Positions 5,414 through 44,156 of a DNA stretch of 62,840 nt are shown one piece after another. Every line of letters starts with the position of its first letter. Positions within the stretch are counted from its first letter, which is position 1. Both the position numbers and the translations under genes were made by a program. The notes under the pieces are model-generated. The model ran no database searches and was not told the DNA's origin. It worked only from the letters and a program-made list of their open reading frames with translations. Source of the DNA: Pseudomonadota bacterium (lineage in GTDB: Bacteria > Bdellovibrionota > Bdellovibrionia > Bdellovibrionales > SG-bin7). The DNA lies in assembly GCA_034439715.1 (NCBI GenBank), contig JAWXAY010000007.1:1-62840 (forward strand), in the 5' to 3' direction.

Positions 5414-5431
5414 AACCTTAAGGAGGTATTT

Positions 5432-17493: not shown

Positions 17494-17509
17494 TGGCGAA
17501 GGCGTGTTA

Positions 17510-17836: not shown

Positions 17837-18621
17837 GTTTTTTCTCCCTCTCCCTTTAAAAAATTAATAATTTTACTTGTTATTTCATTTGGCTGTTCGA
17901 ATTGTACAAAGTGTGAAGCGTTTGGAACTTCAAAATACGAAAATCCTCCCAACATCGACTCGTGCTTGGCGATTTTAGGCAAAATTAATTTATCGTCAGC
18001 ACCATTTATAAAAAGTTTAGGTCTCTTGTCGACTTTTAGTGACGCCAATAAGGGTTCTGCCGCAGTGGCATCTACCTTGGTGTTAAGAAACGCTGCGGCC
18101 GATACGTTATCATTTAGAATCAATGTCCGTCCACGAGCATGATTGGCAATGCTAAAGTAGAGATCGCCATACGAGGCCAACCACTTGCGAAAAGTCTCGT
18201 TGTCTGGTTGAGCGTCGAACACTTGCGAAGTCTCAGCCAACTCGGGAGTCTGAAATTTAGTATACTGAGTGCTTACACTCTTAAAGGCATCGCTTGAAAA
18301 TGGCGTGCTTAGACAAATCAACGCAGTGACGCGAAATTTTTCTTTTAAAAAAAGTTCTGCCCCGACAATTCCTCCAAAAGAGTGACCACAAAGAATAATA
18401 TCGCCTTTTAGACCGTTTAGCATTTGAGTTAAGTCTTCGAGAATACCTTTATAATCATTTAGTCGGGGTTCTTTGCGGCCGCCAGTGCCAGGTGGATCAA
18501 AATAGGTAACCTCGAAGTCTTTTTCGAGAATATTTAAGCTTCTCATGGTCTCGCCACTCAAGCCGGGACCGCCTGGGATCAACACTAGGTTTGGTTTCGA
18601 ATCAATTTGTCGAGTAGTCAT
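17833..18621 (-). CDS. Alpha/beta hydrolase, prolyl aminopeptidase-like
   Basis: LIPGGPG, GHSFGG nucleophile elbow, GADD, ASHF..EQP. Confidence 0.8.
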   Translation of the reverse strand: MTTRQIDSKPNLVLIPGGPGLSGETMRSLNILEKDFEVTYFDPPGTGGRKEPRLNDYKGILEDLTQMLNGLKGDIILCGHSFGGIVGAELFLKEKFRVTALICLSTPFSSDAFKSVSTQYTKFQTPELAETSQVFDAQPDNETFRKWLASYGDLYFSIANHARGRTLILNDNVSAAAFLNTKVDATAAEPLLASLKVDKRPKLFINGADDKLILPKIAKHESMLGGFSYFEVPNASHFVQFEQPNEITSKIINFLKGEGEKT

Positions 18622-19988
18622 AAAATGCCTCTGACTACACTTTGGTTTTCCAACACAATGTCGAAATCTCTAATCCACCTATAGATAGTTCTGTCACTTA
18701 CGCCTAGCGACTGAGCTACTAATCTGCGATTCCCCGCAAATTCAGCTAACGCCTTTTCAAGTTCTTCTTTTTTGATGGTCTCATTTAATACATGCATGCG
18801 AGAAAACACAACTGGTGCCTGAGGTGCACCAAGAGAAGAATTTGCGCCCAAATTAACCGCTGCGATAACGCTTTGACCGTCAATTACTCGTCTGTCTGAA
18901 AGTATAACAATTCTTTGGATGACATTTCGTAATTCGCGAATATTTCCGGGCCAACTATGAGAAAGCAGGGCCTTCACGCCATCAGCTGCGAGCGTAAACC
19001 GTTCCACCATACAACTAAACTCTTCAAGAAATAAATTAGCATAAAAAACAATATCCTCGGGACGCTCACGAAGTGAAGGCAAGGTAAATACAAATGTATT
19101 GAGGCGTTGTAATAAATCAAGCCTGAAGGACCCTTCGGAAACCATTCGGCCCAAATCACAATTTGTGGCTGCGATAAATCGCACCTTTATTTTTCTGGGA
19201 CGAGTCGAGCCTAGCGGCTGCACTTCTTTTTCTTGCAATACACGTAATAGTTTTGCCTGTAGTGGCAGTGAACACTCGCCAAGCTCATCAAGAAAAAAGA
19301 TTCCATCGTTGGCCTGCTCAAAAAGTCCTATTTTGTTTGATACAGCTCCCGTAAACGCTCCCTTTTCATGACCGAAAAGCTCCGACTCAGCCGTTTCCTT
19401 TGGAATACTTGCCATGTTGGCTGCAACTATTTTCTTTTTAAGCTTCATAGCAATATGTTGAGCCAAAAATTCTTTACCTGTGCCCGTGTCACCAAGAATG
19501 AGAATAGAGGCGTCTGATTTACTTTTTAGGATTCGATCAGCTTGCTGTAGTACCAACTTCACTTGTTTAGAATCGGTTAAATATTTGCGAACAGCGTTTT
19601 CGTCGTTTGCTGCCTTAATTTGACAAACACGTTTGATCGCAATACTTAACTTCTCGAAAAAGTCTTCTTCTTTAAGAATCAGATCGAAGAGGCGCCGTCT
19701 TGTTGCCTCGATAACTCTTCTGACGGATTTATCTCCACTAAGCACTATCAAATATATTTGGGGGAAATTGCAGCTTAGGTAATCTATAAGCGCGATTCCG
19801 TCTTTTTCTTGGCCTTCAAAATTCAAATCAATTATTGCCACGTCAGTTCTGAATTGCCCTACTAACGATTGCCCGCGTTTAACCGTGTCAGCAGTAAATA
19901 CATTGTACTGGTGCTTAAAGCTTAATTCTAAACTTTGAAGCATTTCTGGATCATCATCGCAAATAAGAATTGAAGGCTTTATATTCAT
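18618..19988 (-). CDS. Sigma54-dependent response regulator (NtrC family)
   Basis: Receiver domain, GDTGTGKE, ESELFGHEKGAFTGA, FLDE, WPGNIREL, C-terminal HTH. Confidence 0.92.
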   Translation of the reverse strand: MNIKPSILICDDDPEMLQSLELSFKHQYNVFTADTVKRGQSLVGQFRTDVAIIDLNFEGQEKDGIALIDYLSCNFPQIYLIVLSGDKSVRRVIEATRRRLFDLILKEEDFFEKLSIAIKRVCQIKAANDENAVRKYLTDSKQVKLVLQQADRILKSKSDASILILGDTGTGKEFLAQHIAMKLKKKIVAANMASIPKETAESELFGHEKGAFTGAVSNKIGLFEQANDGIFFLDELGECSLPLQAKLLRVLQEKEVQPLGSTRPRKIKVRFIAATNCDLGRMVSEGSFRLDLLQRLNTFVFTLPSLRERPEDIVFYANLFLEEFSCMVERFTLAADGVKALLSHSWPGNIRELRNVIQRIVILSDRRVIDGQSVIAAVNLGANSSLGAPQAPVVFSRMHVLNETIKKEELEKALAEFAGNRRLVAQSLGVSDRTIYRWIRDFDIVLENQSVVRGIL

Positions 19989-21358
19989 ATATGGCCTAAC
20001 CTGATTTCAAAGCAGGCTCCGCCCAAGGCACTTTGGCGATAAATTAATTTCCCACCGTGTGAGCGGACAATGTGATTGGCTGACGCCAACCCGAAGGCCT
20101 GTCGGTCTGCCTTGCTTGATTTTCCGCGCCCCTGTAAAAAGAGAGTGACTTCAGAATTTTTTAATCCCTGACCATCGTCAGACACCGTTATTGATGCGGC
20201 ACCATCTTTCACGTTCAGTGCTAACTCGACTCTCTCATTACAAGCGCGAAGGCCATTTTCTAAAAGATTCTTAACCGCTCTTTCAAGAAAATCAGGATCA
20301 TGAGCAACAAGAACGGGTAGATCCGGAAGGGTTACTCGAATCCTATCAGTTTCCAGAGGCATCGCGCTCTTAATTTGCTGAACAGAATTTTCTAAGCATA
20401 TTCGAATATCCATTTCTCTTAAGCTTACGGGATCGTTTTCTAAATTATATTTAGCAGCCGTTACTTGATTCAACATCTGATCGGCAATTCTGGGTACGGC
20501 ACGAATGGCTTCTTGTCTTGAGGCTTCATCTGTTGATTGATCTGTCACAAGCCTAAGCATTTGGCGAAGGGCCGCGACCGGGTTATGGAGATCATGAATG
20601 AGCCGCTTGTAGGACTCAGCGCTTAGTTGTTTTGCCCTTTCGTTGGCCAGATTCTCTTTGGTGTTTTCGAGTTCTGTATGAGTATTCATAATGGTTTTTC
20701 GAATTGACTCAAGTTCCTCAATAAGAATCGGGGTCAACCGCAATTCCTTATTCTCTGCGATGGACCTTATCGCATTATCAAGATCTCGAAGAGGCGTCAG
20801 CGCTTGCGCCAGCGAGGCCTTCATTCGGTAGGCTGAAAGGCCGGATATGATAAGCCCAATGAAGAACGTGAACAAAGCCACAAAAATCGTTTGCGTCATG
20901 ATTGGACGAATGGGTGAATACGCAACCACGAATGCTTTGGTCCCCTGGGCGCCTGCTCTTTGAATGGGTGCTTCAAAAATTAAGCTATGTTCGCCAAAAG
21001 TAATACCAAAAATGTTTGTTACCACAGGCTCAGGATTATACGGCTGATCCATTTCTGAAATATTTTTGGTGGAGCCAATAACCAAGCCGTCATGAACAAC
21101 CACTAAATCAATTTCTTTTGTTTCAGTTACGCTCTCAATGACTCTCAAAATCTCTGGCCGATCCTGTGACTCCACCAATGTTGAAAGATAGGGTGAAAGG
21201 GCGCCCAAAAGCTGTGCTCCTGATTTCGACTGATAGAAAAGTGCCATTGTGGCAAACCCTACCGACACCAAAATCGTAATCAGAAACGACATGGCCGTGC
21301 GATAGTTACTCAATTGGTTGTGAACATGCATCGCAAGACTTACAGTTTTGGCTTTCAT
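19985..21358 (-). CDS. Membrane sensor histidine kinase
   Basis: Two TM helices, H-box HDLHNP, NLLEN, DDGQG, GLASA. Confidence 0.88.
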   Translation of the reverse strand: MKAKTVSLAMHVHNQLSNYRTAMSFLITILVSVGFATMALFYQSKSGAQLLGALSPYLSTLVESQDRPEILRVIESVTETKEIDLVVVHDGLVIGSTKNISEMDQPYNPEPVVTNIFGITFGEHSLIFEAPIQRAGAQGTKAFVVAYSPIRPIMTQTIFVALFTFFIGLIISGLSAYRMKASLAQALTPLRDLDNAIRSIAENKELRLTPILIEELESIRKTIMNTHTELENTKENLANERAKQLSAESYKRLIHDLHNPVAALRQMLRLVTDQSTDEASRQEAIRAVPRIADQMLNQVTAAKYNLENDPVSLREMDIRICLENSVQQIKSAMPLETDRIRVTLPDLPVLVAHDPDFLERAVKNLLENGLRACNERVELALNVKDGAASITVSDDGQGLKNSEVTLFLQGRGKSSKADRQAFGLASANHIVRSHGGKLIYRQSALGGACFEIRLGHI

Positions 21359-22911
21359 TGTTTTGCCTTCGCCAGTTTGCTTGAGCAACCTTCGTCGAAC
21401 GTAACCATCGAATAATCTATATATGCATCGGTCAGTATGTTTGGCGTAAAATTAGTCACACAATTTGAGATCCAATAATTCGCGCGCGGATGAAACAGAT
21501 TTATGACTACCGCAGAATCCTCGATGATCTTGAGGCCCCTATGATAAAAGCCTTCTCTAACTTTACGATCTCGGGCGGAGCGCGCCTGTTTAAGAATGGC
21601 ATCAAGCTCAGGATTCTTTAGCCCACTAAAGTTATCAGGGTTAGACGATTCAAAATTGCGCAATAAAAATTCGGTGTCTGGGTAATCCAAGTTCATTGAC
21701 ACCAAAAAAGCCTGATGTGTTTTGTTAGTATAGCCTGCCATCAGTTCATCCCAGGCCATAGGTACCACCTCAATGTTCCATCCCTTGTCTTGCAAAGCCT
21801 TTTCAAAAAAAGTTTTCATCTCTTGATGGCGAGATAATTCAATAGGAATTGCCATTTTTATTTTTTCATTACTCGGACTAGTAGCTGATTTTTGAACTTT
21901 CTCGCTCAAAGCAAGGTCATACCCAGGAATCCCAGGTGGTATATAGCCCTTGGCTGGGAACGCGTCCGGATAAAATTGCTTCCGAAAAGTCTCAGTGTTA
22001 ATTGAATCACGAAACAGTTTGCGAGTAGCTAAAGATTTAAAGGGCCCCTTTGTCGTATTAATTCCAACAATCCAAGTCGCGGCGACAGGACTGGTGATTT
22101 TCTTTCCAGATTCAAAGACTTCGTTTTCATTTGTGAGTGGCCAATTGGCTAAATCATCAATGAGGCCAGCTTTTGCCATATTTATCGCTTCAGTTTCTGG
22201 CACCTCTTTGAGAATTATCTTGTTAAGCTTCGGTAGGCCTAAATGATGTTTTTCGAATCGCACTAATGACAATTCTTTTTTAGCATCGTCGCGAGCAACA
22301 AACCTAAAGGGTCCAGAGCCTATTGGGTTTGCAAAAAAAGTGTCTTTAGAAAGAAGTTTCATCGGCAAAATTTTTGCCGTAGCTCCAGCTAACACTGACA
22401 GAAATGGCGGAAAAGGATATTTCAAATGAACTTCAAGCATATGTCGGCTTGAGTCTTTTAAACCAGTGACTGTTTTAGATTTTCCACTAATAAATTGTTC
22501 CGCGCCCTCAATGCAGTCATAGTATTTTTCTACACGGCTACCGGTTGCGATCGCTCTAGTTAATGAGCCGACAACATCGTTAGCTGTAACCAAGGTACCG
22601 TCATGAAAAACAGCATTTTTACGCAGATAAAAGCGAAGAGTTTTTCCATCAGCGGAAGTTTCCCACTTTTCGGCTAGATCGCCTAAAAGTTTCAAAGTTG
22701 GTGAGAACTTAAGTAAGCCAGAGTAAATCATGTTACCGGCAACGATAGAAGCCGTGTCATTCATTTTCACAGGATCAAGTGTTAACGGCAACGAATAGAC
22801 GGCTTTCACGTAAGCGTGATCATCGCTTCGTAGTGCTCCTAGTACAGAGATATGAAATCCGAGGATTAAGGCAAAAAATAAATAAAATGGCGATACTTCA
22901 AACTGCTTCAT
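21355..22911 (-). CDS. Family 5 (OppA/DppA-like) solute-binding protein with no permease nearby
   Basis: TLDP, LAEKWETSADGKT..FYLRK...FHDG...TANDV, PIGSGPF; RBS GAGGAG before 22911. Confidence 0.85.
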   Translation of the reverse strand: MKQFEVSPFYLFFALILGFHISVLGALRSDDHAYVKAVYSLPLTLDPVKMNDTASIVAGNMIYSGLLKFSPTLKLLGDLAEKWETSADGKTLRFYLRKNAVFHDGTLVTANDVVGSLTRAIATGSRVEKYYDCIEGAEQFISGKSKTVTGLKDSSRHMLEVHLKYPFPPFLSVLAGATAKILPMKLLSKDTFFANPIGSGPFRFVARDDAKKELSLVRFEKHHLGLPKLNKIILKEVPETEAINMAKAGLIDDLANWPLTNENEVFESGKKITSPVAATWIVGINTTKGPFKSLATRKLFRDSINTETFRKQFYPDAFPAKGYIPPGIPGYDLALSEKVQKSATSPSNEKIKMAIPIELSRHQEMKTFFEKALQDKGWNIEVVPMAWDELMAGYTNKTHQAFLVSMNLDYPDTEFLLRNFESSNPDNFSGLKNPELDAILKQARSARDRKVREGFYHRGLKIIEDSAVVINLFHPRANYWISNCVTNFTPNILTDAYIDYSMVTFDEGCSSKLAKAKQ

Positions 22912-23107
22912 GTTCTCCTCAGTCCTGCCAAATGCGAGAATCGAGCCCAATGGTGCCTATTTTTAGCGCAACTATTTGCGGACGACAAAGAAATAGTAAA
23001 TAATCAATGTTTATATAAATTTAGGCTACATATAGAGGTGTATTTATTGCAGAAAAACTCTTAGATCAGTCTCTCATGGGGTCACAAAAGCATTACATTT
23101 TTACATG

Positions 23108-23130
23108 GTAGGTACTGACACGGATGTCAG
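23108..23130. promoter_or_regulatory. Palindromic site CTGACA-N4-TGTCAG (candidate activator binding site)
   Basis: GTAGGTACTGACAcggaTGTCAG; recurs at 31118-31140. Confidence 0.6.
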
Positions 23131-31051: not shown

Positions 31052-31087
31052 TAACTTAATTTTATCTTGTGGCCCCAGTCACTCAAC

Positions 31088-31148
31088 AACCTGACACGCA
31101 TGTCAGGTTTTGTGTCAGTAGGTACTGACATCTATGTCAGAATGTCAG
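31088..31148. promoter_or_regulatory. Cluster of CTGACA/TGTCAG palindromes (candidate enhancer)
   Basis: AACCTGACA-cgca-TGTCAGGTT at 31088-31109; CTGACA-tcta-TGTCAG at 31125-31140; extra half-sites. Confidence 0.65.
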
Positions 31149-31240
31149 TGGCAGCGCGCCATACCTAAAAACGTCAGATAAAACAGAAGTTCCAAATAGT
31201 TAATGAAAATCATGTCAACGGGCCAGTCGTAAAAAAGCGT

Positions 31241-31255
31241 TGGCACGCCATTGCT
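31241..31255 (+). promoter_or_regulatory. Sigma54-like promoter with non-canonical spacing
   Basis: TGGCACGCCATTGCT has both consensus elements but GG-N9-GC rather than N10. Confidence 0.4.
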
Positions 31256-31299
31256 CTTAGATTCTCCCGAGACGTTGACGTCTCAAAAAAGGAGGAACG

Positions 31300-31581
31300 A
31301 TGAAAGAACGTAAAATAAAGAAAAAGCTGACACGCTTAGGAGACTACTGGGTTGACAGCGAATTGCTCAAGGAGGGCTACGGTCTTGGAGACATAATTGA
31401 GTTCTCAAGACTGGAACTCCCAGAGCTTATAGATCCTAGTAAGCGAATTCATGTCGGCTGGCTGATTTGTCCAGAATGTTGTGAGTACACACAGATCGAT
31501 CGCCGTAATCCAACTTGTACTCACTGCGGTTGGAATGAAGATGAAGGTTTTTTTCCAGAGCCAGTCAAATGCGCTGCCTAG
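31300..31581 (+). CDS. Small zinc-ribbon protein
   Basis: RBS AAGGAGG; CPEC..CTHCG. Confidence 0.65.
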   Translation: MKERKIKKKLTRLGDYWVDSELLKEGYGLGDIIEFSRLELPELIDPSKRIHVGWLICPECCEYTQIDRRNPTCTHCGWNEDEGFFPEPVKCAA

Positions 31582-31737: not shown

Positions 31738-32175
31738 ATGAACACAGAACAAAAAGAACCATTATTGCAATCGAAAAAAAATGAGTATTACCGTTTTAAA
31801 CTAATGCAAGGCCAGACTGCTGAGGACGGCACATTTCAGCGAACCAAAACCGTGGGTATGGCATATCTCGTCGACGGGAAGCACACCTACTCATTGCGGC
31901 TATGGACTCTTCTCAAAGATAAGTTCTATCTTGTCCCAAGAAAGAACGATCAAGCCCTATTCTTGTTAGTGACGCGCGACTGGAATAAAAATCCATCCGC
32001 AAAAAATAAAACATTTTCGAACATCGTCGGAAATGGAAAAGCTGATGCTGCTCTTGGAGTCGTCAAGATCGAATTCGATCTTCTGGATAAGCCCATCTAC
32101 ATGAGCATCCATCCAGAATCGTTTGCGCAGTCGACACGCCTTCCAGTACCGGAGGTGCTCGATGAAGCCGCCTAA
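31738..32175 (+). CDS. Hypothetical beta-rich protein leading the tra operon
   Basis: GGAG upstream of ATG at 31738; no family recognised. Confidence 0.6.
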   Translation: MNTEQKEPLLQSKKNEYYRFKLMQGQTAEDGTFQRTKTVGMAYLVDGKHTYSLRLWTLLKDKFYLVPRKNDQALFLLVTRDWNKNPSAKNKTFSNIVGNGKADAALGVVKIEFDLLDKPIYMSIHPESFAQSTRLPVPEVLDEAA

Positions 32176-32212
32176 CGATTCAAAAATAAAAAACACAAAC
32201 AAAGGAGAACTT

Positions 32213-32500
32213 ATGAAACGTCATAAAATTATTATTACGCTTGGCCTAGTACTGATGATTGGTCTTCTCACTCCTGATCTTGCACACGCGGGACTCGAAT
32301 CGAGCCTCTTGGGACTCAAGATGAAACTCACAGGTGTGATTCTTCCGCTCTTGTCGGTGATCGGAATTGCGTTTGCGGCAATTTCGTTTTTCACCGGAAA
32401 TCCAAATGCAAAACAGCACATCGGCTACGCGGTGTTGGGTTGTATTTTTGGATTCGGGGCGCAGGCCATCGTGGACTTCATTGCTCAAACAGTTCGCTAG
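32213..32500 (+). CDS. virB2: VirB2/TrbC-like pilin
   Basis: Signal peptide PDLAHA plus two hydrophobic helices; first in the VirB2-B3-B4 order. Confidence 0.75.
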   Translation: MKRHKIIITLGLVLMIGLLTPDLAHAGLESSLLGLKMKLTGVILPLLSVIGIAFAAISFFTGNPNAKQHIGYAVLGCIFGFGAQAIVDFIAQTVR

Positions 32501-32515
32501 GAAAGAGAGGCGAAT

Positions 32516-32842
32516 ATGGATGAGCAAGGACTATCTACAACAAAGGTTCCACGGGCTTTAGAAATGAAGACAAAGCTGCTCGGCTTTGAACTGCCCGATT
32601 TGCTTTTGATCTTCATGAATTTAGCTCTGACGAATCTTATTTTTGGGACGACGTCCTTTCGCTATCCGCTGGTATGGGGAACAACGCTAGGGCTGGCGTT
32701 GTTTCTTTTCTTTGCGAAGCGTGGACGACCCGACAACTACCTTCAACACTTGGGCGAGTTCATTGCGCTACCCGCATACAAGGCGGCGGGTGCTCCTGAT
32801 CGCAAATATAGAAAATTTAGAAAGGAAAAGAAAAATGCTTGA
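32516..32842 (+). CDS. VirB3-like membrane protein
   Basis: VPRAL...LLGFE, two TM helices, precedes VirB4. Confidence 0.65.
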   Translation: MDEQGLSTTKVPRALEMKTKLLGFELPDLLLIFMNLALTNLIFGTTSFRYPLVWGTTLGLALFLFFAKRGRPDNYLQHLGEFIALPAYKAAGAPDRKYRKFRKEKKNA

Positions 32843-35348
32843 ATCAAAACAAAAAGATGAATCTTTAGCACACGAACTTCCGTATTGGGATTTCGTCGAT
32901 GCCCCGCAAGCACACGCGATTCTCTTTGATGGCTCCTTAGTAGGCGGCCTTAAAGTATCTCTTATGGACATTGAGTGCTTGAACGATGACGAGGTGAATA
33001 GTTTTACAACGGGACTACGATCAGCACTCAATTCGATAGCTGAAGGCACGACTCTTCAGTTTGTTTTAAGTGTTGGGTCGGATTTTTCTGAAATGATTAA
33101 AAATCATAAGGCGGGATTTGCAGAAAAAATTCACCCTTTGGTGAAGACAATTGCCGATTATCGTGAGCAAAAAATCAAAGATGCCGTGGATTCCAAAGAA
33201 CTCTATAAACCAGAACTTTTTATTTATTTGCGCACTCCTATGATCGAGCAAAAGAAATCTGGTTTTCTGAAAAGAAAAGAACAGTTTTCAGAAAACGCGT
33301 CCAAGGCATATCAGGATACACTTGAAGTATTAGGCCAAAATATTGACACGTTAGTTTCATCACTTGAGTCGATTGGACTGGAATCTAAATCACTTACAAA
33401 ACTAGAAATTATTTCGAATATTTATAAATTTCTAAACCCGAAGCGATCAGATGAGGAGCCAACTCCAAAAGTTATCACTTTCAAAGAACACGATCTTGAA
33501 AAAGAAGTGGTTGAAGAGATTGAATGGTTGGCGGCGCAGTCTCCACGAGAGCAACTTGTATTTGGTGATCTACTTCTGGGTTTTGGCCAGTTCACCTTGG
33601 ATTCTTACTATCATCGCGTAGTTACTCTTAAAACATTGCCAGAGATGACCTTTGCGGGTCAGTTTGCAAAATTTCTGAGACTGCCGTTTCACTACGACTT
33701 GATTCTATCGCTTGAGGTGCCTCCGCAGGCGAGCGAGATGGCAAAGCTTCAACAGAAACGCAAGATGGCTCACTCTATGGCCTTAACCCAAGGGAATAAA
33801 GCCAGCGATCTTGAGAGCGAGTCAAAGCTTACATCTACAGAAGAATTAATACGTGAGCTTCTGAATACTGGGCAGCGAATCTACGCAGCCCAGATGAGTA
33901 TTGTGCTTCGAGCGCCCGCTACACCTGATGGCACAAAAAGGCTCAACCGTGAAGTGCGAGAAGTTCTTTCGCGCTTTCGATCTTTACAGGGAGCAGAGGG
34001 CCTAGAAGAAACCGTTGGCTCCTGGAAGATTATCAAGGGGAATTTCCCAGCCGCTCCAATTAGCTTGGAGCGAGCTAGGAAAATGAAAACCAATAACCTA
34101 GCAGATTTTCTTCCTGTGTTTGGACCGCGTGAAGGAGACAAAGACCCTGCCGTTATTTTTAGAAATCGCTTGAACGGTCTTGTTAGCTACAATGGGTTTG
34201 ACCCAGGGCTTCCGAATTACAATTGCTTGGTTACCGGCTCATCAGGAGCAGGAAAAAGTTTCTTGAACAATTGCATCTTGCTTCAGGAGCTTGCTCGTGG
34301 TCTTCGCGTATTCATAATCGACATTGGCGGGTCGTATAAAAAACTCACTGAGAGTTTAGGCGGCCAATATCTTGAAATGAATTTATCGGATAACTATCGA
34401 ATCAATCCCTTTGATATTCCAAACCCAAAAGAAGCCCCGAGTAACCAAAAATTAAAATCACTCCTAGCAATTATCGAAAGTATGGTCGCAGAAGATGACA
34501 AGGCAAAGCTTGCCAAACTTGATCGCGCACTTTTAGAACGCGCAGTGATTGAACTCTACAAATCACGAAGAGCCAAAGGCGAAGTCCCAACGCTCACTGA
34601 TCTTGCAAAATATCTTTCAGTTTTTGAAGAAGACTCCATGCGAGCCATTTCAAAGATGCTTTATCTTTGGACTGGTGAGCGTCCCTATGGGCGACTTCTT
34701 GATGGGCCAGGAGGTTTAAGAACAGACGCCCCGATTTGTACTTTTGATCTTAAAGGTCTTTCAAGTTATCCCGATCTTCAGAGCGTGATGATCCTGATCT
34801 TGACGGATTTTATTCTCACCCAAGTCGAGCAGGATAAGACGAATAAAAAAAGAATTATTCTCGATGAAGCATGGGAGTTACTTAAATCCAATGCCGCTGC
34901 AAACTTTATGGAGTATTGCGCTCGAACTTTGAGAAAAAGCGGAAGTGGAATCACCTTTATCACCCAAGGTGTGGAAGAAATTGTCGCAAGCCCCATTGGG
35001 CCAGCGATTCTTAATAATACCGCAACGAAATTTGTGATGCTTCAACGTGGTGACTCAGAAATTTTGGCAAATGCGCTCAAGCTCAACAGCCGAGAGATAA
35101 ATCTCATTCATTCGCTTCAGCAGAGAAAAGGCGAATTCTCTGAGGGCTTCATGATCGAAGGCGATCACCGCCAGGTCGTTCGTATTTTCCCAAGCCCATT
35201 TGAGTATTGGCTATCCACTTCGGATGCCGGTGACAATAAATACCTTTCAGATTTGAAAGATCAGGGACTCACTCTGGTGCAAGCAATTGAAAAAGCAGCA
35301 CTGACTTTTCCAAAAGGGATATCTCAAGGACAAAGGGAGGCTCTGTGA
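32835..35348 (+). CDS. virB4: VirB4/TraC conjugation ATPase
   Basis: GSSGAGKS, IDIGGSY, INPF, ILDEAW, ARTLRK, TQ. Confidence 0.9.
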   Translation: MLESKQKDESLAHELPYWDFVDAPQAHAILFDGSLVGGLKVSLMDIECLNDDEVNSFTTGLRSALNSIAEGTTLQFVLSVGSDFSEMIKNHKAGFAEKIHPLVKTIADYREQKIKDAVDSKELYKPELFIYLRTPMIEQKKSGFLKRKEQFSENASKAYQDTLEVLGQNIDTLVSSLESIGLESKSLTKLEIISNIYKFLNPKRSDEEPTPKVITFKEHDLEKEVVEEIEWLAAQSPREQLVFGDLLLGFGQFTLDSYYHRVVTLKTLPEMTFAGQFAKFLRLPFHYDLILSLEVPPQASEMAKLQQKRKMAHSMALTQGNKASDLESESKLTSTEELIRELLNTGQRIYAAQMSIVLRAPATPDGTKRLNREVREVLSRFRSLQGAEGLEETVGSWKIIKGNFPAAPISLERARKMKTNNLADFLPVFGPREGDKDPAVIFRNRLNGLVSYNGFDPGLPNYNCLVTGSSGAGKSFLNNCILLQELARGLRVFIIDIGGSYKKLTESLGGQYLEMNLSDNYRINPFDIPNPKEAPSNQKLKSLLAIIESMVAEDDKAKLAKLDRALLERAVIELYKSRRAKGEVPTLTDLAKYLSVFEEDSMRAISKMLYLWTGERPYGRLLDGPGGLRTDAPICTFDLKGLSSYPDLQSVMILILTDFILTQVEQDKTNKKRIILDEAWELLKSNAAANFMEYCARTLRKSGSGITFITQGVEEIVASPIGPAILNNTATKFVMLQRGDSEILANALKLNSREINLIHSLQQRKGEFSEGFMIEGDHRQVVRIFPSPFEYWLSTSDAGDNKYLSDLKDQGLTLVQAIEKAALTFPKGISQGQREAL

Positions 35349-36064
35349 AGACTCTTAAGAAGAACATTAAGAATACTCTCATGGCAGGGATCATGAGCAT
35401 TCTGCTCCTTGTTCCACAGCCGAGCCGTGCTGATATATTCGGTGGTGACATTGCCGTTCTTGTGCAGATTCTAGCCAATGCACTCCAGCAGCTTGCGCAA
35501 CTAAGGCAAATTCTTGGCACTGGTGCGGATTCGCTCAATCTCATGCGAGACATTAATCGAGGAATCAGAGACGGCCTTGCGGTTATTCAAATCTTAAATC
35601 CAAAGTTCAATCCTGGGCTTTACGGAGATTTAGATACCGCTGACCGAGTGCTTTCTGCCATTCAAGACCTCTATGGTCGAATCCCGCAAACCGGAGAGGC
35701 TAGGCTTCAGCAAGCACAAGACCGCTCGGTTTCTGAGAGCATTGCCATGAATGGCACGCTCTTTCGTTTTGCGGACGAAGCAGATGGCGAAAGTAAAAGA
35801 ATTATTGCGCACGCTCAAGTGGTTAGCCCACAGGGGGCGGCAAAACTTACTGCGCAATCACTAGCAGTTTTAATTGGAGTGACAACCCAAGTTCTTCGTA
35901 CCAATTCCATGATGCTCAAAATGATGGGCGAGAACATGGCTCTACAAAATCGAAAAGAAAAAGTTCAGTCAGCACAGTTTCGCTCCCAATACGACGGATT
36001 GACTAGCGCTTTGGGTGGCCTGCCAAAAACAACGAACCTTAAACCTTTAGACGGAGGGAATTAA
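35345..36064 (+). CDS. VirB5/TrbJ-like secreted T4SS protein
   Basis: Signal peptide, helical and Gln-rich; between VirB4 and VirB6. Confidence 0.55.
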   Translation: MKTLKKNIKNTLMAGIMSILLLVPQPSRADIFGGDIAVLVQILANALQQLAQLRQILGTGADSLNLMRDINRGIRDGLAVIQILNPKFNPGLYGDLDTADRVLSAIQDLYGRIPQTGEARLQQAQDRSVSESIAMNGTLFRFADEADGESKRIIAHAQVVSPQGAAKLTAQSLAVLIGVTTQVLRTNSMMLKMMGENMALQNRKEKVQSAQFRSQYDGLTSALGGLPKTTNLKPLDGGN

Positions 36065-36065
36065 T

Positions 36066-36944
36066 ATGCCGCAATTTGATCTTCTCGGCACTCTCATGCG
36101 CGACCTCCATCAGGAGTTTGTGAGGATTTACTACCTCATGCTTCCGGTGTTTTTCGCACTGTCAGTCGCCGTTGCGTGGTTCCGCACCCCACAAGGGGGC
36201 GTTGAGTTCATTGATACGTTAAAACGTGCCTTGATCGCAACGATTCTTCTGGTTGCGTTTCCTGATATTAGCCGAGCCATTATTTTTATTGCAGACGGAA
36301 TTGCAGAAAGAATTGATAGTCTCAACAGTATCGACACGATTATCCGAATGGCTCAGGAGAAATCCCAAGGGTATTCGCTTTCGCTAACAAGTATTTTGCT
36401 GCAATTTGATGATCTCATTATCGCGGTACTGTCATTTGCAAGTTATCTTGTTCTCTATATTGCAAGATATCTAACGATAGCCATGTATCACTTCTTTTGG
36501 GTGTTCTACATGGTGTCGGCCCCGCTCCTACTGCTCTTCAATCTATTCCCCGGTACTAGCCAAATCACAACGAATCTTTTCAAAGGCATGATCGAAGTTG
36601 CTTGTTGGAAAATAGTCTGGGCGATTTTGGGAGCAATGCTTGCCTCCCTCAGTTTTGGAGAGTTGTACCGAAGCGAGGGAAGCTACGTTGCACTCATCGT
36701 CATGAATTTCATCATTGCGATAGCAATGCTCGCAACTCCGATGGTTGTGCGGTCACTTGTAAGTTCTGGCTTTCAGTCCATGTCTTCAACAATCGGACCA
36801 GCGGCAGTTGCGACAATGGTGGCGGCTCCTACAAGAGCTGCTTTTGTAATGAAAACAGCAAAGGACATCGGGCCACATACGGCGTCCTATGTGCGAAGTA
36901 AATTCAGAAACTCAAACTCATTTAATTCAACGAAGGGAAACTAA
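36066..36944 (+). CDS. VirB6/TrbL-like polytopic membrane protein
   Basis: Multiple TM helices; operon position. Confidence 0.7.
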   Translation: MPQFDLLGTLMRDLHQEFVRIYYLMLPVFFALSVAVAWFRTPQGGVEFIDTLKRALIATILLVAFPDISRAIIFIADGIAERIDSLNSIDTIIRMAQEKSQGYSLSLTSILLQFDDLIIAVLSFASYLVLYIARYLTIAMYHFFWVFYMVSAPLLLLFNLFPGTSQITTNLFKGMIEVACWKIVWAILGAMLASLSFGELYRSEGSYVALIVMNFIIAIAMLATPMVVRSLVSSGFQSMSSTIGPAAVATMVAAPTRAAFVMKTAKDIGPHTASYVRSKFRNSNSFNSTKGN

Positions 36945-36947
36945 ATT

Positions 36948-37535
36948 ATGAATCAATCAATAAAACTACAGGCAGCGAGACTGCCAAAAATGCTAAGCGA
37001 TCTTTCGCACTCAAACCAGTTCTTGAAAGTATTTTCCGCGTCAGCTCTTGGTGTCGCGGTACTCACTCTCATTTTGGTGTTTGTTTTAGCAAGCAAAGCT
37101 CCAGTGGTATTAACACTTGCGCCAACAGGAGAAAATCTTGAAAAAGTGGAACTCCCAAAACCAGAAGATCAAATCAAGGCAGCAGTAAATCGCTACCTTG
37201 AAAAACGCTATAAGTGGGAACCAGAAAGCGTAAAGCAAAAGCTTTTTGATGCGCAAGCCTTTGTACTCCCATCAAGCATGAAAGCATACCTTGGGGCAGC
37301 CGCTAATGTTGCCAGGTTCTCTATAGAAAAGCTCGTCTCGCAGCGAGTGTACCCAGACAAAATAGAAGTAAGCCTTGAGAAGAAAACAGTATTTATTACC
37401 GGAGACAGGGTGACTTCGATCCAAGGTCTAAACGCTGCTGGAAACTTGCGACTTGAACTCAGTTTTGAAAGTGGCCCACGCACTAGAAATAATCCCTGGG
37501 GTCTTTATATCACCAAAGAAAGAGAGGAGCTGTAA
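36948..37535 (+). CDS. VirB8/TraK-like protein
   Basis: Single TM and C-terminal RTRNNPWGLYIT motif. Confidence 0.75.
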   Translation: MNQSIKLQAARLPKMLSDLSHSNQFLKVFSASALGVAVLTLILVFVLASKAPVVLTLAPTGENLEKVELPKPEDQIKAAVNRYLEKRYKWEPESVKQKLFDAQAFVLPSSMKAYLGAAANVARFSIEKLVSQRVYPDKIEVSLEKKTVFITGDRVTSIQGLNAAGNLRLELSFESGPRTRNNPWGLYITKEREEL

Positions 37536-38254
37536 TGAGATTTGTCATATCAGTGATTCTTTTATTTTCGTGCCCAAGTGACCTTTGGGCAGAAACACGA
37601 GTAAGGCGTATTGCTGTGCAAACGGATCAAATCGTAACTGTAAGAACGGCTTTGGGAATTGCAACGATCATCCAAGTACCGGATCGCCCCAACAGCGTTG
37701 TTGTGGGCGATCAAGAAGCGTTCAAAGTCGAATACTTAGACCAAGCAATTACGATTAAGCCGCTTCACGGCGGTGCAAATAGTAATCTTTATGTTTACAC
37801 CGACTATCAGCGCTTCAACGTGGCACTGGCGACGGGGGCACAATCGATTGCTGACTATGTCGTGTACCTCGAAAATCTAAAAGAGAAAGTTAAGGAACCA
37901 AAGCCAACACTAGTTTGGATGAGGTTTAAAAATATTTTAAAAAACGAAGCGATCACTCTAGAAGTAAAGCGACTTGGTAGAGCAAAAGACGGCGTTTTGA
38001 TTGTTGAGTTTTTTCTGCGTGGCTTGAAAAAAGAAAGCATCAAACCAGAATGGATTTGGCTTACCCAAAGTGGTGCGACAAAGCCGATTCAAAATCTATT
38101 TCTCTCTGGTCTTGAGGTGCGCCCAGGAGAAAGCGTGCAAGGTCTAATGCAGATTTCAAAATCCGACATTGATGAAGAGGCACCTATTCGCATTGAGATG
38201 AGAAGAAAAAAGATGTCCTTTCTCAGTATTCCAAAGGTGGTTTCATGGAAGTAG
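37535..38254 (+). CDS. VirB9/TrbG-like outer core protein
   Basis: VRTALGIATII, VVVGD, IKP, SNLYVYTD. Confidence 0.75.
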   Translation: MRFVISVILLFSCPSDLWAETRVRRIAVQTDQIVTVRTALGIATIIQVPDRPNSVVVGDQEAFKVEYLDQAITIKPLHGGANSNLYVYTDYQRFNVALATGAQSIADYVVYLENLKEKVKEPKPTLVWMRFKNILKNEAITLEVKRLGRAKDGVLIVEFFLRGLKKESIKPEWIWLTQSGATKPIQNLFLSGLEVRPGESVQGLMQISKSDIDEEAPIRIEMRRKKMSFLSIPKVVSWK

Positions 38255-39213
38255 TAGCAATCAAAGAGCGTCTTTCAAAGATTCTTTTGAAAGAGGCGCT
38301 CCCTCTTACAAAAAAGCGCGATGTGAACTGGTCTGCGGTTAAGAAATTTGCAGGAATAGGTATCGGATCTGCGGTGCTTGTCTTGCTGGTAATGCCGACA
38401 CCAAAAGAAGAGCAGAAAACATTTCATGAGAAAACAGAAGGCGGAACTACAGCGCAATCATTTGCTCAAGAAAATAATCCAACCCAAGACGCCCTTGCGC
38501 AGCTTCAGGCCGCGAGAACCAATGTTGGAGCGGTGCCTAACTCCCTTGATTATCTGTATCAAGGGAGTAGCGGATCTGGTGCAGGTAAAAGCCAAGATCG
38601 AAATAGCTCGATGATTCTAACCCGTGGAGGACTCGACTCGAAGACGCAGCTTTCTTCAGGTTGCCGAATCAACGTTCGGCTACTTCAGACAGCCATCGTT
38701 GCTAATCAAGCGATGCCTGTCATTGGCCTGGTCGCAAATGATGTAATTCAAGAAGACAGCGTTGCCATTCCTCAAGGATCAAAACTCTTAGGTGATGTGT
38801 CTTTTGATGAAAGCACAGAGCGTGCACAAATCAGTTGGAAATCTATTCAGTTTCCTGACGGCAAAGAAAGGCAGATTGCTGCAATTGGCGTAAGCCCAGA
38901 CGGTCAAGTCGGTGTTGAAGGAAAAGTTCACTCCGAAGCACTGAAAAATATCGTAGGCCAAACACTCACTCGTTTCATTGGAGCCTATGCAGAAGGTTCG
39001 ATGCAAACAGGAGCCTTCGGTGCAAACCAAGGTGGCAGCGAAAATGGAATGAAAAAAGCCGTTGCTGATACAGCTAAGGATCGAGCCGAGGCATGGGGTG
39101 AGGACATGAAAAAGGAAAAAAAATGGATCGAACTTAAAGCGGGCTCGGAATTCTATGCCGTGATTACTCAGACGTTTGTATTTCGCGACCCAGGAGCAAC
39201 CAATGGCCGATAA
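38245..39213 (+). CDS. VirB10/TrbI/TraM-like core protein
   Basis: TM, linker, IPQGSKLLG, RAQISW..I.FPDG, DGQVGVEGKV. Confidence 0.8.
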   Translation: MEVVAIKERLSKILLKEALPLTKKRDVNWSAVKKFAGIGIGSAVLVLLVMPTPKEEQKTFHEKTEGGTTAQSFAQENNPTQDALAQLQAARTNVGAVPNSLDYLYQGSSGSGAGKSQDRNSSMILTRGGLDSKTQLSSGCRINVRLLQTAIVANQAMPVIGLVANDVIQEDSVAIPQGSKLLGDVSFDESTERAQISWKSIQFPDGKERQIAAIGVSPDGQVGVEGKVHSEALKNIVGQTLTRFIGAYAEGSMQTGAFGANQGGSENGMKKAVADTAKDRAEAWGEDMKKEKKWIELKAGSEFYAVITQTFVFRDPGATNGR

Positions 39214-40855
39214 AAAACAAGACAACCAAGGCAGCGATCACTTCGTTTTCTGTGCAGTCGGAATAGTGCTACTTCTAATTCTCCTCGATAAATTTGAAAA
39301 ATGGTTTCGAATGTGGATCACAACTGAAAATCACCAAATAGTTCTTGCCGGAACATTTGGCTCTTTCATTGCTGTTTTTTGTTATTGGGTGACAAAAAAA
39401 CATCAGGCAGTGACAGATCGGCGAAAGCGCGAGCGTGCTGTCATCGGAAAAGAGAAAGACGACGGCTCTGTCTATTGCGGTAAAACAGAGAAAAACGAAG
39501 GTGTTTACATCAAGCCTCGTCAGCGTGGAATGCACACACAAGTTGTCGGCACAACGAACGCTGGTAAAACAGAGTCCGTCATACTGCCTTGGGCAATCCA
39601 AGATATTGAGCAAGGTCGTGGTCTTCTTTTGATTGATGGAAAGGCAGACAGGAGCCTGCTCGATAAGCTCTGGGCTTATACTGTAAAAGCTGGTCGAAAA
39701 AAGGATTTTCGTCTATTTTCGCTTAGTAATACCAATGAATCACTTTCATTTAATCCACTTTTGGGAGGAACGGCAGAAGAAATTACCGAACGTGTTTTCA
39801 ACGCTTTTGAATTTGAGAATCCGTTTTACAGGAGTGTTCAGTACGAAGTTCTTGCTCAAGTGCTTCGTATTTTTGAAGCTGCAAAAGTAACGCCCACGTT
39901 TTTAAAACTCCATCAGGCGATATCTAATCCAGCTAAATTAGATAAGTTGGTTGAAAACTGTAACGATGTCGCTCTCCAGGATTGGGTTTTGTACTTTACC
40001 AATCTTGCTGGCAGTGAGCGGGATCAGCGAACTTCTGGCCTTACCTCGCAGTTGAGCCATTTTGCGTTTGGAAAAGCTTCGCTGCTTTTCAATCAGGACA
40101 AACCGCACATGACGATTGATGAGGCTCTAAAGAATAACAAGATCGTTTACTTTCAGCTACCGGCACTCTTATCCCCGTTCCTTGGCAAGGCGACAGGAAA
40201 GCTTGTATTGCAGTCACTTCAAGCAGCGGTAGCTAATCGGCATCGTTCAAAAGATAAAAATCAAAAATTCTTCTCCGTCTTTTTAGATGATTTTTCAGAA
40301 TACCTATACCCAGGATTTGTGACTGTTCTTAACAAATCCAGAAGTGCAAATGTGGGCATCGTATTTGCGCATCAGGCTCTTGGCGATATTGAAGCAATGG
40401 GCGACTCAGTCGCGAATGCAATCCTAACGAACTCCAACATAAAGGTATTCATGCGCGGTAATGATCCGAACTCAGCTGAGTATTTTTCAAAAGTAATCGG
40501 CACAAACGCCACTATGAAATTCACCGAAAAACAAAAAGTTGGAATTTTTAGAAATGAAAAAACTGGTGATGTGTCTGCGCGTGAAGCGGAAGAGTTTATC
40601 GTGCATCCGAATCACTTCAAGAGAGAGCTGGGCGTAGGGCAGGCCATCATGGTTGTGCCGCATGATGATGGGGCAAGGACGATTCGATTAAAGTTTGATC
40701 GATTTCCAGATTTGGAAGCTAAGGCAATTCCAAAAACTAAACACCCGACGCCAGTTGTTTTAGAGGCCTCTGAGAATTTTAAGAAAGACAAAATGAAAAA
40801 GGCAGAGCCCGCAATGTTGGACGTAATTAACCAAAACAAAAAGGAGGTTGCATGA
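39203..40855 (+). CDS. virD4: VirD4/TraD type IV coupling protein
   Basis: Two TM helices, GTTNAGKT, IDGKAD, FLDDF, SRSA, AHQ. Confidence 0.88.
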   Translation: MADKKQDNQGSDHFVFCAVGIVLLLILLDKFEKWFRMWITTENHQIVLAGTFGSFIAVFCYWVTKKHQAVTDRRKRERAVIGKEKDDGSVYCGKTEKNEGVYIKPRQRGMHTQVVGTTNAGKTESVILPWAIQDIEQGRGLLLIDGKADRSLLDKLWAYTVKAGRKKDFRLFSLSNTNESLSFNPLLGGTAEEITERVFNAFEFENPFYRSVQYEVLAQVLRIFEAAKVTPTFLKLHQAISNPAKLDKLVENCNDVALQDWVLYFTNLAGSERDQRTSGLTSQLSHFAFGKASLLFNQDKPHMTIDEALKNNKIVYFQLPALLSPFLGKATGKLVLQSLQAAVANRHRSKDKNQKFFSVFLDDFSEYLYPGFVTVLNKSRSANVGIVFAHQALGDIEAMGDSVANAILTNSNIKVFMRGNDPNSAEYFSKVIGTNATMKFTEKQKVGIFRNEKTGDVSAREAEEFIVHPNHFKRELGVGQAIMVVPHDDGARTIRLKFDRFPDLEAKAIPKTKHPTPVVLEASENFKKDKMKKAEPAMLDVINQNKKEVA

Positions 40856-41304
40856 ATAATAAGAAATGTAACTTTTATTATTTTGCACTCATTTACTTGA
40901 TCGCGTTTTCACTCGCTATTGTGGGGTGCGCGACACAGAGCAAAAGCATCGGCTTTGGGGGTGCCATTGGAGCAGGAGGCGGCGCGATGCTTGGAGGCAT
41001 AGCTGATCCTGGAAAAAACGGCGAATACAGAACTCGTAATGTCATAGTTGGAGCAGCCCTGGGTGGCATGGCGGGTATGGTCGCTGGCTCCGTTATCCAT
41101 GAAAATACTGAAAAGCAAAAACAGGAAGCCTTTGCGAAAGGCCAGGCTTCGGCTCCTAAAAAAAGCCAAGGCGAAATGCCGAGCCTAAAGAATCCGAAAG
41201 TTGAGGCTCGCTGGGTAGATGCCAAGAGTGCTGGAAATCGTTATATCGAGGGACATTGGGAATACATAATTATCGAACCCGCACGCTGGAACGGTGCCGA
41301 ATGA
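40852..41304 (+). CDS. Glycine-zipper lipoprotein
   Basis: Lipobox IVGC; GGAIGAGGGAMLGG...GAALGGMAG. Confidence 0.7.
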   Translation: MNNKKCNFYYFALIYLIAFSLAIVGCATQSKSIGFGGAIGAGGGAMLGGIADPGKNGEYRTRNVIVGAALGGMAGMVAGSVIHENTEKQKQEAFAKGQASAPKKSQGEMPSLKNPKVEARWVDAKSAGNRYIEGHWEYIIIEPARWNGAE

Positions 41305-42062
41305 AATACGAAAGCGGCCAAAACATACCCGATCATGTAGCTGATGCCCTAAGGTTAACTGGAAAAGTTGGCTTTCTAAGCCACGCCTTGTGGCGAGATT
41401 GTTTTGCCGAGAAGTACAATCTCCGTTGGCAAAGAAGGCAACTTAGAAATTTAGTAAAAGAGAAAATCCTGCGAGATTACGCAAAAACTTTAAACAACTG
41501 CTACTTCGTATTGAGCATTAAGGGACGTCGACTTCTGGAAGACGAAAATAGAAACGTCGTGAAGCCATCACCATTAAGCCAACTTCTACATGACGAAAAT
41601 GTCGCCCGCTCACTCATCAACTTAGATAAGTCTGGACTGCTTGTGGGCTGGAAAACAGAAAATGAACTCAAGAGCACTCAGGGTAAAGTATTTCAATTAA
41701 ATCGGGATGCCAGAAACAAGAAATATCCCGACGCTGTTCTTAAGATAAATACGCATGGAATCGAAAGAACGATTGCCATCGAATACGAGAGGACCAGGAA
41801 GTCTGCTGGGCGCTACAAGAAAATCCTGTGGCTATATTCTAGGTCGATGGATTTCGGCATGGTGGTTTTTATTTGTGAGAACAAATCCATTGAAACCGCA
41901 ATTAGAGAAAAGTTGAAATACATGCAGTTGCCAGATTTACTTAAACGAGTGGCGTTTGTTCAAAGTGCCAAGTGGCAGATTGACCCTGCGAACGCGCCAC
42001 TTGAACTGGGAAACAAGGTTTTTACTCTGAAAGAAATTTGTAGAAATAAAAAAGCCGTATAA
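41301..42062 (+). CDS. Replication-relaxation (Replic_Relax) family putative relaxase
   Basis: N-terminal wHTH-like region, LLHD, YPDAVL, IAIEYERTRKS..RY; next to VirD4. Confidence 0.7.
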   Translation: MKYESGQNIPDHVADALRLTGKVGFLSHALWRDCFAEKYNLRWQRRQLRNLVKEKILRDYAKTLNNCYFVLSIKGRRLLEDENRNVVKPSPLSQLLHDENVARSLINLDKSGLLVGWKTENELKSTQGKVFQLNRDARNKKYPDAVLKINTHGIERTIAIEYERTRKSAGRYKKILWLYSRSMDFGMVVFICENKSIETAIREKLKYMQLPDLLKRVAFVQSAKWQIDPANAPLELGNKVFTLKEICRNKKAV

Positions 42063-42260: not shown

Positions 42261-42276
42261 TAAATAAGGAGATATT

Positions 42277-43046: not shown

Positions 43047-44156
43047 ATGGCAATCAACCCTTATCTCGTAAATGGAAACAAGTACTTCGCAGTGTATGTA
43101 AATGGATTCGACTCTCGTGGGCAACGCATCCAGCGTCGCAAACGAGGTATCGACACTCTTAGAAAAGCAGAGACCATAGAGTTTGAACTCAAGCGTGAAC
43201 TTGCAAAACTCAAAGAAGAAGCAACTTCATACAGGTGGTCTGAATGGTTTGAAGAATGTCTCAAGCGAATGAAACTGACCCAACGGCCCTCTACAGTAGA
43301 GGGTTACGACAAGCAGTTAAGAAAGTGGGTCAGTTCAAGATGGGGACATTTCGAACTAAAAAAGATCACCAAGATGCAGGTTCACAAACTTGTGTATGAG
43401 GAAATAGATGCAAGTCTATCTCCCAACACAAGGAGAACAATACTCAAGATGGCTCGTCGGGTGTTTCAAATGGCAGTGGAAGAAGGCATTCTTGACCGCA
43501 ACCCCTGTGTGGGGATTCAAGTCAATGTGCCCGAGGTAGATGCAAAGGTGCTAACCAATGCAGAAGCCGAGACCTTCCTTCGAGAAGCACGACGAACTGG
43601 TCACAGATTTTTTCCGATGTGGTTTTTGGCCCTGGCGACAGGGTGCCGCTCGGGAGAGCTGATGGCTCTTCGCTGGAGTGACATCGACTTTGAAACTCGT
43701 ATTCTCTCTGTTTCTAAACAGTGGACGAACAAAACGGGATTTGCTCCTACCAAGACGCAGAGAAGCCGTGTGGTTCCGATTTCAGAAGACTTGTCTCGGT
43801 TTCTAAAAGAACTGAAGCTCAAGCGTGGATCGGAGAGCGAGTTTATCTTGCCGCACCTCCTCGAATGGGAGAACGGCGAGCAGGCACGCATCACAAGGGA
43901 GTTCTGTGTGGCTATCGGGATCACCTCCGTTAAGTTCCACGACCTACGTGCAACCTTCATAACCAACCTGTTGTCGCGTGGTGTGTCGCTAGCTCAAGTC
44001 ATGTCCGTCGTAGGACATAGCCAGCTAAAGACCACTAACAGCTATCTCAGGAAGGCAGGGGTAGAGGTTCGAGGAGTGACAGACAACCTCGGCTACAAAC
44101 TCCCTGATGAGGTTATAGAAACACAGGTGCTCTCTTTTACAAGAGAGGCCCAATGA
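43047..44156 (+). CDS. int: Tyrosine recombinase/integrase
   Basis: TGCRSGELMAL.W.DIDF, KT, HDLRAT, VGHS, YL catalytic residues. Confidence 0.92.
   Translation: MAINPYLVNGNKYFAVYVNGFDSRGQRIQRRKRGIDTLRKAETIEFELKRELAKLKEEATSYRWSEWFEECLKRMKLTQRPSTVEGYDKQLRKWVSSRWGHFELKKITKMQVHKLVYEEIDASLSPNTRRTILKMARRVFQMAVEEGILDRNPCVGIQVNVPEVDAKVLTNAEAETFLREARRTGHRFFPMWFLALATGCRSGELMALRWSDIDFETRILSVSKQWTNKTGFAPTKTQRSRVVPISEDLSRFLKELKLKRGSESEFILPHLLEWENGEQARITREFCVAIGITSVKFHDLRATFITNLLSRGVSLAQVMSVVGHSQLKTTNSYLRKAGVEVRGVTDNLGYKLPDEVIETQVLSFTREAQ

Follow-up and report, generated by a model that had tools for sequence, protein, structure and literature searches.

Naturally misregistered sigma-54-type promoters before the conjugation operons of Bdellovibrionota elements as a possible threshold on gene transfer

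Described systems and the element in the window

Signal-gated transfer is known from integrative conjugative elements (ICEs) and plasmids, for example ICEBs1 with RapI/PhrI, pCF10 with its pheromones, TraR/AHL and SetCD/AcaCD, all of which use sigma70-type promoters. The locus described here has in common with them an element-encoded sensing apparatus and dedicated activator boxes before the transfer genes; in contrast, its output stage appears to consist of a sigma-54 activator and promoter.

Engineered 1-bp deletions of the sigma-54 spacer reportedly go back to Buck in 1986. In the available text of two papers the spacer between the -24 and -12 boxes is described as strict and as imposed by the HTH-RpoN interface (PMC5505868, PMC9770992), and the closed complex has its HTH and RpoN domains about 31 Å apart, compared with 34 Å for adjacent grooves of B-DNA (PMC9770992). 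According to the accessible part of a Myxococcus study, mutating the boxes or deleting 1 bp of the spacer left some activity, which fell approximately 3- to 11-fold but not to zero (PMC7910581), while excerpts of two further papers mention a TGGCAC-N5-7 consensus, i.e., longer spacers (PMC12316311), and a motif search that permitted variable spacers (PMC11997794). As far as the available text goes, canonical NtrC-family sigma-54 promoters such as that of Myxococcus NmpR (PMC11841059) share with our locus boxes of the TGGCAC and TTGC type, a pair of palindromes located 100-170 bp upstream, and a GAFTGA-bearing activator of receiver-AAA+-HTH architecture whose own operon is probably among its targets. 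Our locus differs from these systems in its target, a conjugation operon, and in the number of nucleotides between the GG and GC of its boxes, which is 9 (N9) in the window and 8, 9 or 20 in most strong relatives instead of the strict 10 (PMC5505868, PMC9770992). The N9 geometry is that of the 1-bp deletions engineered into Myxococcus natural-product promoters; whereas those are, in the text available, laboratory loss-of-function alleles (PMC7910581), N9 occurs naturally, is conserved and has N8 and N20 counterparts. In the literature searched, which consisted of main texts available without subscription, we found neither a signal-gated sigma-54 transfer element from Bdellovibrionota nor a natural N8, N9 or N20 sigma-54 class.

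The window, by which we mean the whole 62,840-nt stretch analysed, belongs to contig JAWXAY010000007.1 of assembly GCA_034439715.1 (genome 3.26 Mb). Its relevant genes are:

16948..18621, minus strand: alpha/beta hydrolase, 108-aa protein and ICMT-like methyltransferase (Pfam)
18618..19988, minus strand: NtrC-type activator with receiver, AAA+ domain with intact GAFTGA and Fis-type HTH (helix SDRTIYRW)
19985..21388, minus strand: histidine kinase (Pfam)
21355..22911, minus strand: family-5 solute-binding protein (Pfam), leading the signalling operon
31300..31581, plus strand: first tra-operon gene, encoding a 93-aa four-cysteine zinc-ribbon protein, no Pfam match
31738..42062, plus strand: tra operon with a conserved 145-aa protein, VirB2-like pilin, VirB3-like protein, VirB4, VirB5/6/8/9/10-like proteins, VirD4 coupling protein and two unassigned genes
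42818-43045: excisionase-like HTH gene, 5' of the integrase
43047..44156, plus strand: tyrosine integrase

VirB4, a coupling protein and an integrase co-occur in the window, as expected of an integrative conjugative element. Pfam matches in the tra operon comprised TrbC, TraG/TraC, TraE, CagX, TrbI and T4SS coupling, and the VirB3, VirB5 and VirB6 labels were assigned from gene position alone. Pfam gave no relaxase match at 41256-42062, the 20 direct-repeat families listed (of 31) included no att repeat, and no tRNA was found. Nested inverted repeats at 42070-42270, between the genes for a 268-aa and a 150-aa protein, form a candidate origin of transfer. In an Atlas search the zinc-ribbon protein matched hypothetical proteins throughout. 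The signalling operon, with its binding protein, kinase and activator, lies 8 kb upstream of the tra region, and the genes at 16948..18621 are candidate signal makers. The activator combines the receiver, the AAA+ domain with GAFTGA (L1 loop) and the Fis-type HTH that define its class, and its closest named relatives come from Bdellovibrionales, Bacteriovorax and Oligoflexia. Elsewhere in the window, a sigma-54 element before a 119-aa exported protein of the metal-resistance cargo (5113-5128, minus strand) has the canonical N10 spacing that the original prediction had given it. A long imperfect inverted repeat at 5200-5430 (TTGTTATTTTTTTAGAAACAGG and its complement) is intergenic and possibly a MITE or a small RNA; an Rfam search of the window returned no match.

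The genome holds three further related elements beside that of the window (at least four in total; contigs C14, C36 and C38, or L137-L139, and C3, or L140), and their cassettes and palindromes differ. The sensing cassette contains hydrolase and ICMT genes in the window, YcaO in C14 and C36, and a lipocalin with a binding protein in C38, and the tra promoters of these elements are N9 or N8.

The tra promoter, its palindromes and its leader

The regulatory features of the two operons are as follows:

22933..22949, minus strand: probable signalling-operon promoter by homology, GG(22947-22946)-N10-GC(22935-22934), weak boxes
22944..22958, minus strand: overlapping N9 reading, AGGCAC..GGGCT
23115..23130: single palindrome upstream of the signalling operon
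31091..31106: distal palindrome, candidate enhancer, centred 144.5 bp from the -24 G
31113..31118, plus strand: TGTCAG half-site between the palindromes
31125..31140: proximal palindrome, candidate enhancer, centred 110.5 bp from the -24 G
31143..31148, plus strand: TGTCAG half-site 3' of the proximal palindrome
31240..31255, plus strand: tra promoter element TTGGCACGCCATTGCT, GG(31242-31243)-N9-GC(31253-31254)
31262..31267, plus strand: CT-rich anti-Shine-Dalgarno stretch, predicted pairing partner of 31291-31296 in RNA that begins upstream
31269..31284, plus strand: predicted 5' leader hairpin
31291..31296, plus strand: Shine-Dalgarno (SD) sequence of the first tra-operon gene

The tra element has consensus -24 and -12 boxes that stand one base too close together. 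Its -24 side, TTGGCACG at 31240-31247, contains TGGCAC with the GG, and the N9 elements defined below average 10.1 of 11.1 bits there; its -12 side, TTGCT at 31251-31255, contains TTGC with the GC, as do 23 of 23 N9 elements. The GG-N9-GC reading of the original prediction is therefore correct, and with 9 nt in place of exactly 10 the element does not count as a canonical sigma-54 member. Contigs of two runs (X1 and X5), either of which is possibly the source of the window, cover 30900-31500 without a gap or an altered letter, which argues against a simple assembly slip.

Exact CTGACA-N4-TGTCAG palindromes lie at all three positions where they had been predicted, together with the half-sites, and the 3.26 Mb of the genome contain no further exact copy; at up to two mismatches there were 7 matches against 1.77 expected (0/100 shuffles). 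A single palindrome also precedes the signalling operon in the close relatives L016, L026, L142 and L145. Sister elements carry another palindrome in place of CTGACA-N4-TGTCAG, of the TCTCA-N4-TGAGA type, so that the conservation sought in related ICEs was found for the position of the palindrome, with a different sequence. The proximal palindrome of the sisters is centred 110.5-112.5 bp from the -24 G in 6 of 8 relatives (7 of 9 counting the window), and the distal one 143.5-144.5 bp away in 3 of 8 (L016, L025, L026). The tra promoter thus has paired dyads at conserved positions 80-170 bp upstream, as expected of an enhancer. The recognition helix reads SDRT in the window's activator versus SEA(T) in 79 of 120 homologues, and the palindrome differs likewise. 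Judged from sequence, CTGACA-N4-TGTCAG is most likely the enhancer, and a putative binding site, of the activator encoded at 18618-19988. Of the claim that this activator drives both operons, the part that stands is the palindrome as its putative enhancer at both, with a position conserved in sister elements; the driving itself stays a prediction. The only other element with the window's palindrome and half-sites is L128 (N9), which has them at the distal position and lacks an adjacent activator; in the genome of L128, G231, the closest activator (54%) had the helix AEKT and no such palindrome before its operon. A metagenome scan for the palindrome together with the promoter gave no tra genes in any locus among the matches listed.

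The signalling operon had been thought to share the spacing anomaly. The N9 sequence in question (22944..22958) is present and probably the wrong element: its -12 side lacks TT, relatives have nothing conserved that corresponds to it close to the start codon, and the N10 element that overlaps it resembles those of close relatives. An N10 element, TGGCS..TTTCGCT, lies near the start of the binding-protein gene in five of the seven close relatives examined (L015, L016, L026/L141, L142, L145) and was not found in L038 or L410; four sister-clade elements also have N10 signalling elements, and L015 has an additional, more distant N9 candidate. As the weight matrix favours the N9 reading (7.8 versus 3.3 for N10), the N10 assignment rests on homology, by which the signalling operon probably uses the N10 element. 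The anomaly is then probably not common to both promoters, the regulator-side promoters of relatives being canonical N10 and only the tra promoter off-register. In clade B the signalling operons (L139 upstream of 794; L096, L099, L029, L023) appear to have a TTGACA-type promoter with an overlapping activator half-site and no sigma-54 element, and the clade-B activator may act differently on its own operon.

Downstream of the boxes, a GTGAG-type leader begins 11 nt 3' of TTGC in N8, N9, N10 and N20 homologues alike, and this constant distance implies that the indels lie between the boxes and leave the spacing from the -12 box to the RNA unchanged. The computed leader and insulator geometry bracket +1 to +4 as the start (canonically about 12 nt after the -12 C), from which we predict transcription to begin at 31266-31269 in the window; such a start is predicted to leave a 5' hairpin and a free SD. 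Anti-SD insulators are described for sigma-54 promoters, e.g., E. coli glnKp, in the text available (10.1101/086108), and common to both cases is a pyrimidine tract with its centre at about -4, whose pairing with the downstream SD is confined to read-through RNA. By computed pairing, the window has such a CT tract, complementary to the SD and placed before the predicted start. In the N9 elements the tract at about -7..+3 pairs with the SD of the first gene at a peak of -8.3 kcal/mol, against mostly -2 to -4 kcal/mol elsewhere. Over the 23 N9 elements this segment gave -7.3 kcal/mol with its own SD versus -5.9 kcal/mol with the SDs of other elements, a preference reached in 1 of 5000 permutations, with kin among the elements being non-independent. 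The N9 SD is predicted to open (median unpaired 0.26 rising to 0.79-0.87) only when the transcript begins no earlier than +1. The signal was absent when sought in the N8, N10 and N20 classes. The putative insulator in the tra leader would be an already known mechanism; compared with the glnKp type as far as that is described in the accessible text, the tract of the window's family covaries with the SD over 23 elements and sits in an off-register promoter.

Spacer classes in related elements

In the phylum, 125 of 401 genomes contain VirB4 homologues. Of the 150 VirB4 matches listed (from a total of 181), we collected the upstream DNA for 120, and added that of the genome's own four elements; six loci were dropped for too little upstream DNA, which left 118 elements. 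The half-matrices used to score the boxes were derived from 44 host N10 sites, and the spacer was left free. At a score of at least 16.5 the tra strand gave 7 N8, 20 N9, 4 N10 and 12 N20 matches, with at most 2 at each other spacer from 5 to 35 and at most 0.7 each in shuffles; 39 of the 43 strong matches in the four classes thus have a spacer of 8, 9 or 20. The opposite strand, on which many regulator operons start, gave 6 N10 and 1 N9 at this threshold, and 19 N10, 1 N9, 0 N8 and 1 N20 at a score of at least 14. The plain pattern in 74 representatives at <70% marker identity gave 4 N8, 11 N9, 3 N10 and 12 N20. After removal of 11 matches that lay inside genes, were leaderless or had other spacers, the final labels were N9 for 23 elements, N8 for 7, N10 for 7, N20 for 12 and no clear box for 69; in-register tra promoters are undercounted here, since weak in-register candidates are visible by eye in several unlabelled elements.

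In the off-register classes the left box scores 10.1-10.8 out of 11.1 and the right box 7.5-8.4 out of 9.4, both close to the maximum; read in the N10 register, these sites score -10 to -16. The near-perfect boxes recur in 21 N9, 6 N8 and 12 N20 clusters at <90% identity, with a median marker identity of 32-47%. In the N20 class, TTGGCAC, often followed by an A-run, stands exactly 20 nt before the GC of CTTGCA, after which the common leader follows (L035, L070, L071, L075, L077, L080, L082, L083, L087, L097, L098, L125; newly found L420, L429-L432, L435, L437). One N11 and one N7 variant of the tra promoter are visible by eye in the leaders of L085 and L091, and the N11 one retains the common leader. 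L067 carries two -24 boxes (N10 and N19) and encodes a zinc ribbon fused to a sigma70-region-4-like tail (L067:13702-14145), a fusion which suggests joint action of the two small leader proteins found in other elements. Phase variation by slippage was considered and rejected, there being no repeat tract in the N9 spacers.

A held-out scan of 384 genomes of the order for the N20-type pattern with a free gap returned 40 matches, 16 of them at N20, and among the 30 loci fetched ICE leader genes lay downstream in 8 of 12 at N20 (7 new) versus 0 of 18 at other spacers. The strict N9 pattern had 14 matches in the held-out genomes, half of which (7, of which 4 new) were ICE leaders; the other 7 were not, and those examined had no common downstream gene. 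Four such N9 matches (L445, L446, L450, L453) are non-coding, outside recognisable ICEs and likewise unlinked to a common downstream gene. The conserved spacing, including the held-out scan, supports one of the two options of the original prediction, that the tra element belongs to a variant promoter class, and speaks against decay. Host upstream regions held 31 N10, 8 N8, 2 N9 (both ICE promoters) and 1 N20 sites, the N10 count being partly circular because the half-matrices were built from host N10 sites. The 8 strong N8 sites before host or ICE genes were rejected as a host class and are mostly chance: their conservation test failed, the only one of 30 orthologous loci with the dksA site being its own, and some others lying in signal-peptide codons.

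In a quick tree of 35 activators the four spacer labels need 7 changes, compared with 17 when shuffled, and over the tra tree the labels are scattered. Of the 29 off-register elements for which an activator was detected, 23 have a multi-gene sensing cassette, versus 0 of 6 N10 elements. Activator, enhancer, promoter and leader appear from these patterns to travel as a module. Because spacer class follows activator clades and the elements are not independent, correlations across elements show no causation, and co-inheritance alone could account for them.

A proposed threshold mechanism and its alternatives

The host has one copy of rpoN, encoding a canonical sigma-54 that aligns collinearly with its E. 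coli counterpart across the HTH and the RpoN box, so nothing in sigma-54 itself explains a tolerance of spacing; a variant host sigma-54 or a second rpoN was looked for and not found. Sigma-54 was found in 29 of 30 hosts checked.

We consider it likely that the palindromes are the activator's enhancer and that GG-N9-GC is a working, deliberately misregistered sigma-54 promoter that would fire conjugation only at high activator. A signal sensed by the binding protein and kinase would lead to phosphorylation of the activator, which would first drive its own operon from the in-register N10 promoter in a positive feedback. Higher activator levels would then fill the paired sites at the tra promoter, where host sigma-54 would be anchored on the -12 box, setting the start near 31266-31269, with the displaced -24 box held poorly or in a strained, undocked state. 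Poor hold on the -24 box would, on this proposal, keep basal and cross-activated firing low. The N9 promoter would be weakened but usable, its perfect boxes and paired enhancer sites compensating in part, and the outcome would be a two-tier switch, in-register feedback first and conjugation at high signal only. Read-through RNA from the upstream cargo genes would be silenced by the anti-SD stretch.

By simple arithmetic, at 10.5 bp per turn the -24 box misses its canonical phase by 17-69 degrees, always on the short side, with spacers of 8, 9 and 20 nt, a geometry that would suit an RpoN domain able to undock. Against the threshold model, the spacing is called strict in the structural papers, one sigma-54 cannot easily touch boxes 20 nt apart, 69 of 118 elements have no clear box, and misregistration is not required, as four elements have strong N10 tra promoters. 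The off-register spacing likely keeps gene transfer weak until the element's sensing circuit is strongly on. More tentatively, and with somewhat less than even confidence, we propose a natural sigma-54 class in which the -12 box fixes the start and the -24 box is read 1-2 bases closer or one helical turn further, through undocking of the RpoN domain or an element-encoded re-registering factor, the spacer being an evolved threshold dial for conjugation below interchangeable sensing cassettes.

One alternative, which we regard as unlikely, is that an element-encoded adaptor (a zinc ribbon or a small sigma70-region-4 protein) or the cognate activator remodels sigma-54, which would make this a private promoter class and not a weak one. 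A four-cysteine ORF is indeed present in the leader region of 38 of 42 off-register versus 26 of 69 box-less elements (a count that includes a few DksA/TraR-type fingers), zinc-ribbon subtypes track spacer class, and spacer class tracks activator clade. However, N10 and box-less elements have zinc ribbons too, three N9 elements (C38, L096, L099) have none, a region-4 protein is found in 0 of 23 N9 elements, no RpoN-box-like protein besides sigma-54 was found in the genome or the loci, and co-inheritance explains the pattern equally well.

It is slightly less probable still that only the -12 box initiates and that the displaced -24 box is a decoy, parking the holoenzyme non-productively and exerting a repression that ends once the activator moves the enzyme. 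The distance from the -12 box to the leader is constant and the -24 box is displaced by -2, -1 or +10, none of the 12 N20 elements has GG at the canonical -25/-24 position, and L067 and L026 have a second GGCAC box about one turn upstream, all of which would fit. The -24 box is, however, the main binding determinant of sigma-54, so that a promoter without productive -24 contact would be unusual, and a G is kept at the canonical -24 position in 23 of 23 N9 elements.

That another factor, sigma70-family or repressor, reads the boxes and that the activator works without sigma-54 seems improbable to us. The N20 boxes can also be read as TTGGCA-17 nt-TGCAAT, which fits a 17-nt -35/-10 spacer, the clade-B signalling promoters look sigma70-like with their overlapping half-site, and no sigma-54 DNA-binding domain was found in G144, a 99% complete genome that carries the N20 element L125 and its activator. 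But N8 and N9 cannot fit a -35/-10 geometry and yet have boxes and leader in common with N20; no sense-strand sigma70-type site was found at 30900-31800, the boxes match the host's own N10 consensus, and the activators mostly retain GAFTGA or GSFTGA. A decayed or chance look-alike is largely refuted and very improbable: 1-bp deletions have been used elsewhere, in the part of the source available, to cripple sigma-54 promoters, but near-perfect boxes persist across diverged N9, N8 and N20 clusters in a strand-specific manner confirmed by the held-out scan.

Taken at the strength given above, the threshold reading concerns dozens of natural, diverged promoters that keep both boxes and avoid the 10-nt spacing, one class being displaced by a helical turn. 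These off-register promoters are ready substrates for testing the rigidity of the spacing rule and how sigma-54 engages DNA, and promoter predictors with a fixed spacer would miss all of them. For the biology of the family, they point to a high-threshold setting on horizontal gene transfer in a widespread group of elements (VirB4 in 125 of 401 genomes).
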